NCBI RefSeq assembly: GCF_988242995.1
Contig: NZ_OZ547043.1
Length of the DNA: 64,000 nucleotides
Reading direction: 5' to 3' (one strand)
Positions 56,188 to 62,030 of this stretch are shown piece by piece; the stretch's first letter is position 1, and every line of letters begins with the position of its first letter. The notes beneath the pieces were generated by a model. It had not been told where the DNA came from. It made no database searches and saw only the letters and a list, made by a program, of their open reading frames with translations. A program made the position numbers and the translations under genes.

Positions 56188-57090
56188 TCAGAAGCTATCA
56201 TTTAAACGATCTATGAATCGTGAGAAGACAAGGTTGTTCAACGAAGCCTTGTTATAGGAAATATAAAGTTTAACCGCAGGAAGTGGTCGTTCCAGTTTTA
56301 TCTCTTGTAACTTCAAAAAATCACGATGTAAATCGTACAGTTCGGTGGGCACAATGCCCAATAAGTCAGTAACAGAAATACTATTAATTATCGTCAACAA
56401 AGAAGAACTGCGAAATGAAATTTTACGGTTCATAAAACGTTCATCTATGTCCATTTGAATTTCGTCAATCCCTGCTGATTTAGATATCAACAAGGTGAAT
56501 TCTTCGGCGATAATTTGTTCATAGTTACTGGTATCGGTAATACGAGGATGTTTATTGCTACATATAAGAGAATTGCGAATAGTATGTAACGGCATGCAGA
56601 TGACAGAGCGGCTAATTACTGGTTGTAGTGTAATTGCCAGGTCAGTTTTGCGTTGAACCAACAGTTCTTCGGCATTTTCAGCTGAAAGCAGTATGTCATG
56701 GCATTCTATATCGATTGAAGTATCTTGTCTAAGACAGCGGATTAGCATGTTGTTATTAGTACAAGAAATAAGCTGAGGACCGTAGATAATAAAATTTTTC
56801 TTTAGCTCAGACTTATTAACAATATTGATCGTTTGTTCAAGGCCTCTGAGATTTTTCTCAAGATGATGATGCAGATTTAACCCTGTCGTAGTCGGCGCGA
56901 TACCTTTCCCTGAGCGAATGAATAACGGGTCATTAAATTGCGCACGTAAACGTTGTAACGACTGACTAACAGCAGAGGGCGTTATATATAATGATTCTGC
57001 TGCTTTGCTAATGCTGAGGTGTTGATAAATGCACTCAAATATGACCAGTAAATTCAGATCAAATTTTTTTAGGTCATAAAGATTCGCCAT
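56188..57090 (-). CDS. ybdO: LysR-family transcriptional regulator YbdO, 300 aa
   Basis: ORF track; start moved to MANLYDLKKFDLNLLVIFECIY; markedly AT-rich gene. Confidence 0.85.
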   Translation of the reverse strand: MANLYDLKKFDLNLLVIFECIYQHLSISKAAESLYITPSAVSQSLQRLRAQFNDPLFIRSGKGIAPTTTGLNLHHHLEKNLRGLEQTINIVNKSELKKNFIIYGPQLISCTNNNMLIRCLRQDTSIDIECHDILLSAENAEELLVQRKTDLAITLQPVISRSVICMPLHTIRNSLICSNKHPRITDTSNYEQIIAEEFTLLISKSAGIDEIQMDIDERFMNRKISFRSSSLLTIINSISVTDLLGIVPTELYDLHRDFLKLQEIKLERPLPAVKLYISYNKASLNNLVFSRFIDRLNDSF

Positions 57091-57297
57091 AACATACTCC
57101 GTTATATTATCTCTTCTATAAATCATTCATTTGTTCAATAATGTTGCTGTTGTATTTATTTGTATTATGTTTTTTTGCTTAACTCAGAATTAAGTTTTTC
57201 TAAAATAGCACAGCCACTTAGGGCAGAGCGAGCAATTCATGCTTTTTTAGGATGGTTGAAAAACAGGGATATATTTCAACCATCCATGAATTATCTT

Positions 57298-58044
57298 TTA
57301 TTTATTCCCCATAATGATATTAAGCGTTTTCTGATCGGGCAACCCCACGGCCTGTTGCAGCGTATTTTCCTTACTCATGTAGTAGATAGCTGGTGTGACA
57401 TTTGCCCCCAGATCGTCCATGAGTTTTTCGTTGTCGCTTAACACTTTCATTTGCTCTGTACTTACGTTTGCAGGCACGTTTAGCTTAAGCTTGCCACCAG
57501 AGGCTTCATATTCTTGCCAGGTTTTTGCGGGATCTTTGGAGGCAAGAATTGCCGCTGCTGTCGCCGGGCTTTCTGGCTTGATAACGCCAACCAACAATGT
57601 TCTTAATTGCACTTTGCCAGAATCTACCCACGGGCGAGCCTGCTGCCAGAACTGTTTACAATATGGGCAGAACGGATCGGCGAAGACGTAGACAATGACC
57701 GGCGCGTCTTTTTTACCGTCGAGGAGCCAGTGGGATTGTTCCATCCGTTGCCACATTTCGCGTCCGGCTGGTGCGTAAATTTCTTTTTCGATAAGTGTGT
57801 TACTCAGGTTTTCACCTTTCTCGTTGTACATGTAACCGGAGATAGCGTGCTTACCATCTGGAGTCAGGTAGATGGTGACGCCCATATCCTGATACTTTCC
57901 GAGATAACCTTTCATTCCTCCGGGAGCATCGAATGTTTTGATGATCGTAATACCCTGTTTTTCAATCGCTTTTACTGGATCAGGAAGTTCCTCTGCGAAG
58001 GCGATTGCAGGAAGCAGAGCCAGTAAAAGTATCTTTTTTAACAT
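57298..58044 (-). CDS. dsbG: Periplasmic thiol:disulfide oxidoreductase DsbG, 248 aa
   Basis: ORF track; start moved to [17 protein letters not shown] (signal peptide); CPYC active site. Confidence 0.93.
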
Positions 58045-58329
58045 TAATTTGTCCTTTTCAGTCAGTGCAAAAGTCGGGTAAAAGGCATAACCTATCACTG
58101 TCATAGGTAAGAGCTTAGATCAGGTGATTGCCCTTTGTTTATGAGGGTGTTGTAATCCATGTCGTTGTTGCATTTGTAAGGGCAACACCTCAGCCTGCAG
58201 GCAGGCGCTGAAGATACCAAAGGGTAGTTCAGATTACACGGTCACCTGGAAAGGGGGCCATTTTACTTTTTATCGCCGCTGGCGGTGCAAAGTTCACAAA
58301 GTTGTCTTACGAAGGTTGTAAGGTAAAAC

Positions 58330-58385
58330 TTATCGATTTGATAATGGAAACGCATTAGCCGAATCGGCAAAAATTGGTTACCTTA
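58330..58385. promoter_or_regulatory. Probable OxyR-binding region of the ahpC promoter
   Basis: Position relative to the ahpC start and established OxyR control of ahpCF; motif not rigorously matched. Confidence 0.35.
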
Positions 58386-58415
58386 CATCTCATCGAAAAC
58401 ACGGAGGAAGTATAG

Positions 58416-58979
58416 ATGTCCTTGATTAACACCAAAATTAAACCTTTTAAAAACCAGGCATTCAAAAACGGCGAATTCATCGAAATCACCGAAAAAGATA
58501 CCGAAGGCCGCTGGAGCGTCTTCTTCTTCTACCCGGCTGACTTTACTTTCGTATGCCCGACCGAACTGGGTGACGTTGCTGACCACTACGAAGAACTGCA
58601 GAAACTGGGCGTAGACGTATACGCAGTATCTACCGATACTCACTTCACCCACAAAGCATGGCACAGCAGCTCTGAAACCATCGCTAAAATCAAATATGCG
58701 ATGATCGGCGACCCGACTGGCGCCCTGACCCGTAACTTCGACAACATGCGTGAAGATGAAGGTCTGGCTGACCGTGCGACCTTCGTTGTTGACCCGCAGG
58801 GTATCATCCAGGCAATCGAAGTTACCGCTGAAGGCATTGGCCGTGACGCGTCTGACCTGCTGCGTAAAATCAAAGCAGCACAGTACGTAGCTTCTCACCC
58901 AGGTGAAGTTTGCCCGGCTAAATGGAAAGAAGGTGAAGCAACTCTGGCTCCGTCTCTGGACCTGGTTGGTAAAATCTAA
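58416..58979 (+). CDS. ahpC: Alkyl hydroperoxide reductase peroxiredoxin subunit AhpC, 187 aa
   Basis: ORF track [33 protein letters not shown]... Confidence 0.98.
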
Positions 58980-59149
58980 ATTTCCTTCGTCTTTCGCGCT
59001 ACCAACTCCGGCGCGAAATACTTCGGAAATTCACCTAATTCTTCGGGTGCTGCGGCACCCGATTTTCTTCCCCGCACCATGATGCAAGCTGCATCCAGGT
59101 AGCCGCAGAGGCCGCTTGCATGATGATGTTTAAAGCCCAGGAGATAAAC

Positions 59150-60715
59150 ATGCTCGACACAAATATGAAAACTCAACTCAAGGCTTACCTTGAGAAATTG
59201 ACCAAGCCTGTTGAGTTAATTGCCACGTTGGATGACAGCGCTAAATCGGCAGAAATCAAGGAACTGTTGGCTGAAATCGCAGAACTGTCAGACAAAGTCA
59301 CCTTTAAAGAAGATAACAGCTTGCCGGTGCGTAAGCCGTCTTTCCTGATCACTAACCCAGGTTCCAACCAGGGGCCACGTTTTGCAGGTTCCCCGCTGGG
59401 CCACGAGTTTACCTCGCTGGTACTGGCGTTGTTGTGGACCGGTGGTCATCCGTCGAAAGAAGCGCAGTCTCTGCTGGAGCAGATTCGCCATATTGACGGT
59501 GATTTTGAATTCGAAACCTATTACTCGCTCTCTTGCCACAACTGCCCGGATGTGGTGCAGGCGCTGAACCTGATGAGCGTACTGAACCCGCGCATCAAGC
59601 ACACTGCAATTGACGGCGGCACCTTCCAGAACGAAATCACCGATCGCAACGTGATGGGCGTTCCGGCAGTGTTCGTAAACGGGAAAGAGTTTGGTCAGGG
59701 TCGCATGACGTTGACTGAAATCGTCGCCAAAATTGATACTGGCGCGGAAAAACGTGCGGCAGAAGAGCTGAACAAGCGTGATGCTTATGACGTATTAATC
59801 GTCGGTTCCGGCCCGGCGGGTGCAGCGGCAGCAATTTACTCCGCACGTAAAGGTATCCGTACTGGTTTGATGGGCGAACGTTTTGGTGGTCAGATCCTCG
59901 ATACCGTTGATATCGAAAACTACATTTCTGTACCGAAGACCGAAGGCCAGAAACTGGCAGGTGCGCTGAAAGTTCACGTTGATGAATACGACGTTGATGT
60001 GATCGACAGCCAGAGCGCCAGCAAACTGATCCCGGCAGCGGTTGAAGGTGGCCTGCATCAGATTGAAACAGCTTCTGGCGCGGTACTGAAAGCACGCAGC
60101 ATTATTGTGGCGACCGGTGCAAAATGGCGCAACATGAACGTTCCGGGCGAAGATCAGTATCGCACCAAAGGCGTGACCTACTGCCCGCACTGCGACGGCC
60201 CGCTGTTTAAAGGTAAACGCGTAGCGGTTATCGGCGGCGGTAACTCCGGCGTGGAAGCGGCAATTGACCTGGCGGGTATCGTTGAGCACGTAACGCTGCT
60301 GGAATTTGCGCCAGAAATGAAAGCCGACCAGGTTCTGCAGGACAAACTGCGCAGCCTGAAAAACGTCGACATTATTCTGAATGCGCAAACCACGGAAGTG
60401 AAAGGCGACGGTAGCAAAGTCGTAGGTCTGGAATATCGAGATCGTGTCAGCGGCGATATTCACAACATCGAACTGGCCGGTATTTTCGTGCAGATTGGTC
60501 TGCTGCCGAACACCAACTGGCTCGAAGGCGCAGTCGAACGTAACCGCATGGGCGAGATTATCATTGATGCGAAATGCGAAACCAACGTGAAAGGCGTGTT
60601 CGCAGCGGGTGACTGTACAACGGTTCCGTACAAGCAGATCATCATCGCCACTGGCGAAGGTGCGAAAGCCTCTCTGAGTGCTTTTGACTACCTGATTCGC
60701 ACCAAAACAGCATAA
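59150..60715 (+). CDS. ahpF: Alkyl hydroperoxide reductase flavoprotein subunit AhpF, 521 aa
   Basis: ORF track; start moved to [23 protein letters not shown] (ATG 59150, CAGGAG RBS). Confidence 0.97.
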
Positions 60716-60743
60716 GAAGAAGTAAGATTCACCTGCAATTGCT

Positions 60744-60777
60744 TAGCCGCCGGGGTCAAACCTGGCGGCTTTTTTAT
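60744..60777 (+). terminator. Rho-independent terminator after ahpF (AGCCGCCGGGGTCAAACCTGGCGGCT followed by TTTTTTATT)
   Basis: Inverted repeat plus T-run read from sequence. Confidence 0.6.
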
Positions 60778-60835
60778 TGCATTAAAAAGCCCTGCAGGGA
60801 TGGCTCCGGGCAGGGCGGGATACTTATTCTGGCAA

Positions 60836-61264
60836 TTAACGCACAACCAGCACCGGCAAATTGGCGTGGCGGATCACGCTCGAGGCGTTAGAACCCAACA
60901 GATGAGTTGAAATTGATGGGTTACGCGAACCAATCACTACTACATCTGCATCAAGTTCTTTCGCTAACTCGTTAACTTCATCCCGCACACTACCAAAACG
61001 GACATGTTGCTTAATGCGGGAAGGATCGATGGTGAAGTGGCTGACCATCGTTTGCAAACGTTCTTCTGCTTCATGTTGCAGATGCTCTTCAAAACGACGT
61101 ACATCAGCGGCAAAACGGTGCAGGCTCAGGCTGGCTGACCCCGGTAGTACGTGAAGTAGATGAATAACTCCGTCATCCTGGGCGAGGAATTCAGCGTGGC
61201 GAACCGCTTTGTCGCTCAATTCCATTTCGAAAACATCCACTGGCATGATGATTGTTTTGTACAT
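60836..61264 (-). CDS. uspG: Universal stress protein UspG (YbdQ), 142 aa
   Basis: ORF track; start moved to [21 protein letters not shown] (ATG 61264, AAGGAGAGA RBS). Confidence 0.93.
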
Positions 61265-61387
61265 AAGCATTCTCTCCTTGTTTTTGCATGTATACATAAC
61301 AGCACATTATTGGTTATGAATCTATGATTTGCGAGGCTGATTTGATCTGAATTTGCTATTGAGCTGGAAAATAAATAAAACCAGGCG

Positions 61388-61477
61388 CTACCAGCGTTGT
61401 TCAAGGTATAGCACTGCAGCAACAATAATTGCGGCTATGAATATATAAAATGCAGTGATACCGAGAGCTTCGCTCAT
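61388..61477 (-). CDS. Hypothetical small hydrophobic protein, 29 aa (MSEALGITAFYIFIAAIIVAAVLYLEQRW)
   Basis: Short ORF below the track threshold, found by reading the uspG-rnk intergenic region; single predicted transmembrane helix; weak RBS. Speculative. Confidence 0.25.
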   Translation of the reverse strand: MSEALGITAFYIFIAAIIVAAVLYLEQRW

Positions 61478-61619
61478 ATGAGGTTCCGCAGATGAATAAC
61501 CAGTTCAGATTAGAATGCTGCGCTTAAGAGCAAAATGATAAATCTGGTTGATATTTGAGCGGAAAGAGGATGCGAGTGCATCCTCTGGGCAAAGCGAGTT
61601 ATCGCTTGTGCAGATGGGA

Positions 61620-62030
61620 TTAAAGCAGGTAGTCGCCAGCAGCTTCTGGCTGGTATTCGAGTTCCAGCACTTCAAGGTGGGTTGCAACGCCGCCCGGAAG
61701 TTCCCAGTGAATGGAATCGCCAACGCGCAGCCCCAGCAGTGCGGCACCTACCGGAGCCATAACGGAAAGCTGAGTATTGCTGTCGGTCATTTTTGCCGGA
61801 TACACCAGCGTGCGCACACGCACTTCGCCATCGCTAAGATTGCGGAATTTAACCCGGCTGTTCATTGTCACCACGTCGTGTGGCATCTCTTCTGGCGAAC
61901 ACATTTGGGCGCGATCCAACTCTGCGTTTAACGCGTCGGCGATTGGCAAACCAGCATAGGCTGGTTGCTCCAGCAGAATATCGATGCGTTCGGCATCCAG
62001 GTCGTTAATGATGATAGTTGGTCTGGACAT
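61620..62030 (-). CDS. rnk: Regulator of nucleoside diphosphate kinase Rnk (GreA/GreB-like), 136 aa
   Basis: ORF track [34 protein letters not shown]... Confidence 0.95.

Follow-up and report, generated by a model that had tools for sequence, protein, structure and literature searches.

The 170-nt spacer between ahpC and ahpF (58980-59149) most probably works as a three-module post-transcriptional junction through which one OxyR-driven promoter yields much more ahpC than ahpF message, a reading to which we assign a probability of about 0.8. Three stem-loops, termed SL1, SL2, and SL3, were found in the spacer. The two hairpins reported in an initial annotation of this DNA are both already known, one as a leaky terminator (SL2) and the other as an RNase III hairpin (SL3).

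In Escherichia coli, endogenous hydrogen peroxide is removed mainly by AhpCF. The ahpCF promoter is under the control of OxyR, and cells contain about tenfold more AhpC than AhpF. AhpC functions as a decamer together with a dimer of AhpF (as cited in PMC5371410), so the operon has to deliver its two products in unequal amounts.

Layout of the ahpC-ahpF Junction

The window analyzed here is the whole stretch of 64,000 nt, which is E. coli DNA. Positions 58900-59230 were matched in 5422 of 5426 complete E. coli genomes (≥95% identity), and the genes beneath are annotated as ahpC and ahpF. The ahpF start was also placed by tblastn with the AhpF N-terminus in 22 species. The features of the junction, all on the plus strand, are the following.

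58416..58979 (+), ahpC coding sequence, 187 aa, stop codon TAA at 58977-58979 (open reading frame list and annotation of the matching E. coli genomes)
58979..59031 (+), SL1, internally deleted ERIC/IRU repeat of 53 nt, arms TTTCCTTCGTCTTTCGCGC / GCGCGAAATACTTCGGAAATT kept and a centre of ~74 nt missing
59043..59062 (+), SL2, predicted terminator hairpin, 8-bp stem 59043-59050 / 59055-59062 (UCGGGUGC / GCACCCGA) with a UGCG loop
59063..59069 (+), interrupted U-tract UUUUCUU, with published Term-seq 3' ends at 59065 and 59067
59075..59128 (+), SL3, long imperfect hairpin and RNase III processing site, published cut at about 59092
59139..59152 (+), ahpF Shine-Dalgarno AGGAG (59139-59143) and start codon ATG (59150-59152), from the sequence and the RefSeq K-12 start
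59150..60715 (+), ahpF coding sequence, 521 aa (open reading frame list and RefSeq)
60745..60770 (+), operon-end terminator, 10-bp stem followed by UUUUUAUU, -22.4 kcal/mol, called by the terminator scan and given here beside SL2

The spacer as a whole folds with a z-score of -4.1, and none of 200 shuffled sequences folded as well. A promoter scan found no promoter-like site for ahpF inside the spacer, and cmscan over positions 57000-62000 returned no Rfam family in the spacer at E ≤ 10. In the alignment, K-12 and the window are identical from SL2 through the ahpF start, and the two strains diverge here solely in the ERIC module further upstream, which is 53 nt long in the window and 127 nt long in K-12. 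K-12 coordinates were transferred to the window via the ahpF ATG (639753 = 59150). For the comparative analysis, ahpC loci were collected from one genome per species and the ahpC-ahpF spacer was extracted from 22 Enterobacterales; the full spacer set (n = 109) comprised these 22 spacers sampled through AhpC, the window, and 86 distinct metagenomic spacers.

The initial annotation had described two stem-loops in the spacer, a GC hairpin followed by a T-rich tract and a long inverted repeat ending just before the ahpF ribosome binding site. Both exist, the former as SL2 and the latter as SL3, although the count was one short, SL1 having been overlooked. The inverted repeat stops 10 nt short of the Shine-Dalgarno sequence, and its 12-nt repeat is imperfect, being interrupted by a G-G mismatch (59081 x 59122).

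An in-frame ATGATGATG at 59120, within the 3' arm of SL3, extends the mechanically called ahpF open reading frame to 531 aa. We rejected an N-terminal extension of AhpF from this position, as just 9 of 99 spacers have it open and in frame, namely the window, the E. coli spacer L009, E. albertii, and Escherichia-type metagenomic spacers. No Shine-Dalgarno sequence was found upstream of the ATGs at 59120.

Several observations were made around the junction. Positions 58178-58271 (+) in the dsbG-ahpC intergenic region match the enterobacterial small RNA STnc70 in Rfam (44.1 bits, gathering threshold 40), and a Term-seq 3' end published by Adams et al. (2021, PMC7815308) at K-12 position 638796, which corresponds to 58267 in the window, falls at the end of this match, 149 nt before the start of ahpC. 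The ahpF 3' UTR together with the operon terminator, at 60684-60776 (+), shows a weak match to ncS54 (19.6 bits, far below gathering), and the ahpF 3' UTR has been characterized as an Hfq-associated small RNA, according to a 2023 iRIL-seq paper (PMC10703908). In the DH5alpha assembly NZ_CP045741.1 (L003, positions 530-560 of the locus), SL3, the ahpF ribosome binding site, and the first ahpF codons are missing, with the junction reading ...GGGTGCTGCGGCA directly followed by GCGATTTTCATTCGACACAAATATGATGCTTACC; this gap could be a genuine laboratory deletion or an assembly error.

SL2 Is a Predicted Rho-Independent Terminator Conserved Across Enterobacterales

The SL2 stem contains six G-C pairs out of eight, closes a 4-nt loop, and is followed by the tail UUUUCUUCC. 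Its fold (-16.6 kcal/mol) has a z-score of -5.2, with 0 of 200 shuffles as good, and the terminator scan calls SL2 too, in agreement with the initial annotation. A GC-rich hairpin with a T-tract upstream of the ahpF ribosome binding site was found in all 22 Enterobacterales species sampled through AhpC. Across these species, 94.9% of the cells of the stem alignment were paired and four of the eight pairs showed compensatory changes (for example GGGTGC:GCACCC, GGCTGC:GCAGCC, and GGATGC:GCATCC), while none of 500 shuffles did as well and slid controls reached at most 44% pairing. The 109 spacers contained 39 distinct SL2 stems, among them GGGCGC:GCGCCC and AGGCGC:GCGCCT, and the T-rich tail 3' of the hairpin was kept in all 22 species and in all 109 spacers. 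These comparisons identify SL2, by sequence, as a conserved Rho-independent terminator that is ancestral to Enterobacterales.

The initial annotation had named 3' ends within the spacer as the evidence by which termination could be checked, and such ends have been published. Term-seq of MG1655 lists 17,950 reads at 639668(+) in LB at an OD of 0.4, 8,697 reads at 639668(+) in M63, and 7,690 reads at 639670(+) in LB at an OD of 2.0, with ...GGGTGCTGCGGCACCCGATT[T] given as the flanking sequence (Adams et al., 2021, PMC7815308, Supplementary file 1). Because K-12 and the window are identical from SL2 to ahpF and the ATG at 639753 equals 59150, these ends correspond to 59065 and 59067 in the window, inside the U-tract. 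They lie just 3-5 nt beyond the SL2 stem, which is compatible with termination or with trimming. For SL2 itself, neither an in vitro termination assay nor Term-seq in an rnc mutant was found in the literature, and the TERMITe and SMRT-Cappable-seq supplements contain no mention of ahpC.

SL3 Is an RNase III Hairpin Confined to Part of the Order

The inverted-repeat search delimited SL3 as two arms of 21 nt (59075-59095 / 59108-59128) that are 81% complementary. They include a perfect 8-bp core ATGCAAGC (as AUGCAAGC) / GCUUGCAU at 59082-59089 / 59114-59121, flanked by CAU/AUG. In E. coli, 17 standard pairs form over the 21 arm positions and two more apically, amounting to the roughly two helical turns of mostly double-stranded RNA that characterize RNase III substrates. 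The fold (-23.0 kcal/mol) has a z-score of -2.2, with 4 of 200 shuffles as good, and all 62 distinct SL3 variants fold as long hairpins.

RNase III cleavage at this place has been documented. A new RNase III site at 639695, described as 'Intergenic (ahpC-ahpF)', was mapped with reads aligned to NC_000913.3 and verified by in vitro cleavage, 5' RACE, and an rnc-dependent change in coverage (Gordon, Cameron, and Pfleger, 2017, PMC5371410). Transferred to the window, the site falls at about 59092 in the upper stem of SL3, which bears out the suggestion of the initial annotation that the second hairpin processes the ahpF leader. Cleavage in SL3 stabilizes the ahpC mRNA, whose half-life is ~14 min in the wild type and ~6 min in the rnc mutant, with no change in the stability of ahpF (PMC5371410).

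The hairpin is present in 12 of the 22 sampled species (Escherichia, Citrobacter, Enterobacter, Leclercia, Superficieibacter, and relatives) and absent from the other 10 (Pantoea, Erwinia, Providencia, Brenneria, Arsenophonus, Mangrovibacter, and others), in which the T-tract is followed by the ahpF Shine-Dalgarno sequence within about 10-20 nt. SL3 is a later, clade-specific insertion. A dispersed or mobile repeat was considered for SL3 and rejected, as there is one copy per genome; 5421 of 5426 E. coli genomes carry it in near-identical form, 4,330 of them with exactly the sequence of the window.

Scanning metagenomes with an SL3 pattern gave 120 matches, 109 of them between ahpC and ahpF, a set unfit to test the main stem because the search pattern fixed that stem. 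Covariation in SL3 is essentially absent: the stems are nearly invariant, only one compensatory pair was seen, and single substitutions break pairs. For a role of SL3 at the RNA level, the support therefore comes from published biochemistry rather than from sequence comparison. In both arms the sequence itself is conserved, the apical motif GCAUUCAGGC recurs across genera, and the 13 sequences sampled without bias all carry a G-G and an A-G mismatch. This conservation, together with the occurrence of SL3 only in the Escherichia-Citrobacter-Enterobacter-Leclercia group with its shorter T-runs, could reflect a candidate site for a sequence-specific protein or small RNA, or a shift of the clade from termination-based to processing-based control. 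Among spacers L009-L050 and L089-L207, the longest run of T following the SL2 stem averaged 3.4 with SL3 and 5.1 without it (Mann-Whitney p 0.005, not corrected for phylogeny); this trend, and it is only a trend, fits a shift of the SL3 clade to weaker termination plus processing.

A perfect 7-nt complementarity exists between the loop and 3' arm of SL2 and the apex of SL3 (CUGCGGC / GCCGCAG, 59050-59056 / 59102-59108). It is probably due to chance, as it is lost in the E. coli spacer L009 (GCCGAUG).

SL1 Is an ERIC Remnant With Three Alleles in E. coli

ERIC elements, also called IRU or RU-1, are reportedly 127-bp imperfect palindromes of Enterobacteriaceae, the descriptions being ascribed to Sharples and Lloyd in 1990, Hulton et al. 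in 1991, and Wilson and Sharp in 2006. SL1 overlaps ahpC by one base, starting on the final base of its stop codon, and its 21-nt arms fold with -19.1 kcal/mol (z = -5.2). In the alignment, the additional 74 nt of K-12 sit within the SL1 loop, where K-12 carries a full 127-nt ERIC. This K-12 element agrees with the published E. coli consensus at 95 of 125 positions (76%, ungapped), the consensus being the 127-nt sequence of Wilson and Sharp (2006) as reproduced in Table 1a of Delihas (2007, PMC2759123). The ERIC copies at rpsB-tsf, ybiT, and ardC-mobH align along the whole K-12 element, including the outer arms retained in the window. SL1 thus shows homology of its terminal arms to ERIC ends at the orthologous insertion site, whereas the 127-bp palindrome with its central core is found in the K-12 allele and not in the coreless, 53-nt SL1 of the window. 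Compared with the ERIC1R and ERIC2 primer sequences, the K-12 allele matched at 20/22 and 21/22 positions, and the best match of the window copy was 11/22. The 61-nt segment of the window occurs at one place per genome, while the 127-nt K-12 allele has a median of 9 places per E. coli genome. As the core is absent and the element is single-copy, we did not count SL1 as a full family member but classified it as an ERIC remnant; judged by its sequence, the SL1 of the window is an ERIC minus its centre.

Three spacer alleles were found in E. coli: 170 nt with the 53-nt remnant, as in the window (about 2,511 genomes), 244 nt with the full 127-nt ERIC, as in K-12 MG1655 (about 1,797 genomes), and 128 nt without SL1, as in O157:H7 (about 1,118 genomes). 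SL2 and SL3 are the same across all three (L001, L002, L004). At the same site, other genera and metagenomes have full ERICs, tandem ERICs, other short forms, REP sequences, or nothing. Four spacers carry short ERICs with different symmetric internal deletions, each of which still forms a hairpin (L100, L101, L129, L140); tandem ERIC pairs were seen in L105, L164, and L178, and REP-like sequences in L016, L019, and L090. The variety of ERIC and REP forms suggests repeated palindrome-centred deletion together with an insertion hot spot. SL1 is thus an interchangeable module, a variable accessory hairpin outside the conserved core of the junction.

The three ERIC alleles could vary ahpC mRNA stability and peroxide tolerance among natural E. 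coli lineages. In Yersinia, ERIC acts in an orientation-dependent manner and can be destabilizing (De Gregorio, 2005, as summarized in PMC2229807 and PMC3184786). A full-text literature search returned nothing relevant on ahpC together with ERIC.

Proposed Mechanism and Alternative Explanations

In the mechanism that we propose, SL2 and its interrupted U-tract would act as a constitutive, leaky Rho-independent terminator. Part of the RNA polymerases would stop at SL2 and release a monocistronic ahpC mRNA ending ...GCACCCGAUUU, while those reading through would transcribe SL3, whose imperfect duplex of ~21 bp would be cut by RNase III, parting the ahpC half from the ahpF half. Trimming of the upstream fragment back to SL2 would give the same stable ahpC mRNA, so that both routes would converge, and the ahpF message would be the scarcer one, its leader short (about 35 nt) and unstructured and its Shine-Dalgarno sequence exposed. 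Since the rnc mutation alters ahpC stability, a sizeable share of the ahpC message is presumably made as SL3-bearing read-through transcript, which implies that the terminator is leaky. In the species lacking SL3, the T-tract nearly adjoins the ahpF Shine-Dalgarno sequence and the spacer has no room for a promoter; ahpF would be expressed there solely via read-through. It is plausible that the spacer elements set the AhpC:AhpF ratio; our literature search found no AhpC:AhpF protein or mRNA ratios for mutants of the SL elements.

The 3' ends at SL2 probably arise at least in part by true termination. Alternatively, SL2 might not terminate at all, in which case read-through would be complete, RNase III would cut SL3, and exonucleases would trim the product to a protective SL2 hairpin, the Term-seq ends being products of processing. 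The cut only 30 nt downstream, the halving of the ahpC mRNA half-life upon loss of RNase III, the position of the mapped 3' end very near the base of the SL2 stem, and the interruption of the U-tract (UUUUCUU) all agree with such trimming. We nevertheless consider it unlikely, as a purely protective hairpin has no need of the T-rich tail that is conserved in the 22 species and 109 spacers, and the species without SL3 keep the hairpin with even longer T-runs of 6-7. Slightly less credit is due to the proposal that SL3 is chiefly translational and hinders ribosome access to the ahpF ribosome binding site until it is removed or melted. SL3 does end merely 10 nt upstream of the Shine-Dalgarno sequence, and PMC5371410 cites adhE as a known case in which RNase III removes an occluding structure. 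However, the minimum-energy and centroid folds both leave AGGAG and AUG outside SL3, a weak AUGUUUA/UAAACAU pairing near the ribosome binding site is absent from the centroid and missing in other genera, and the processed ahpF leader folds no better than shuffled sequences (z = -0.3). The initial annotation had also offered occlusion of the ahpF ribosome binding site by the second hairpin, which these folds do not support.

That the spacer is a regulated attenuator or a riboswitch-like sensor, with read-through responding to a signal such as peroxide stress, appears very improbable. The operon does belong to the oxidative stress response and the spacer is highly structured, yet it matched no Rfam family at the threshold given above, and no conserved pairing competes with SL2: the sole candidate, the 7-nt complementarity between SL2 and SL3, is located 3' of the terminator and is not kept in L009. 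Moreover, the sequence upstream of SL2 is freely swapped for ERIC, REP, or nothing, and the 3' end at SL2 is present in all three growth conditions tested. Where the initial annotation spoke of partial termination or attenuation, termination is thus upheld by the Term-seq ends at SL2, but with neither an antiterminator structure nor an Rfam family, nothing points to regulated attenuation. Hardly any probability attaches to the notion that the hairpins are functionless, neutral debris of palindromic repeat insertions. SL1 is indeed a decayed ERIC, and ERIC and REP have a hot spot of insertion just past the end of ahpC; for SL2 and SL3 this notion is already contradicted, as both are single-copy and near-identical in the same 5421 E. 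coli genomes, SL2 is kept, with compensatory changes, throughout a bacterial order, and both have published molecular activities. It remains for SL1 only.

Taken together, the three-module junction illustrates the stacking of a terminator, a processing hairpin, and a hairpin derived from a repeat toward unequal output. As SL2 and SL3 already have published molecular evidence, our analysis confirms known biology and opens no new question about them; it adds that the terminator is ancestral to Enterobacterales, that the RNase III hairpin came later in one clade, and that the ERIC module exists in three E. coli alleles. We regard it as doubtful that SL3 is anything beyond a generic RNase III duplex and, as a separate matter, that the ERIC alleles alter ahpC mRNA stability or peroxide tolerance.

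Comparison With Known Systems

SL2 resembles the leaky intra-operon Rho-independent terminators in having a GC hairpin and a U-tract between co-transcribed genes, with 3' ends in the U-tract, and, as the spacer holds no promoter of its own for ahpF, ahpF depends on read-through as in those systems. It differs from them in its interrupted U-tract and in the processing hairpin directly downstream, owing to which termination and processing yield the same product and are indistinguishable from existing data.

With ERIC elements, SL1 shares the terminal arms, the transcribed intergenic location, and the hairpin fold, and full-length copies occupy the SL1 site in K-12, Citrobacter werkmanii, Superficieibacter, and others. 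In contrast to these, SL1 has 53 nt only, lacks the central core bearing the ERIC-PCR primer sites, and is not detectable as a dispersed repeat. REP/BIME sequences act as 3' stabilizer hairpins, for example at malE-malF. Like them, SL1 is a repeat-derived hairpin downstream of a highly expressed promoter-proximal gene, and REP sequences are found at exactly the SL1 position in RIT691 and Leclercia. SL3, finally, is the same ahpC-ahpF element that stands among the intercistronic RNase III sites of Gordon et al. (2017), together with pflB-pflA and yajQ, where cleavage stabilizes the upstream message.
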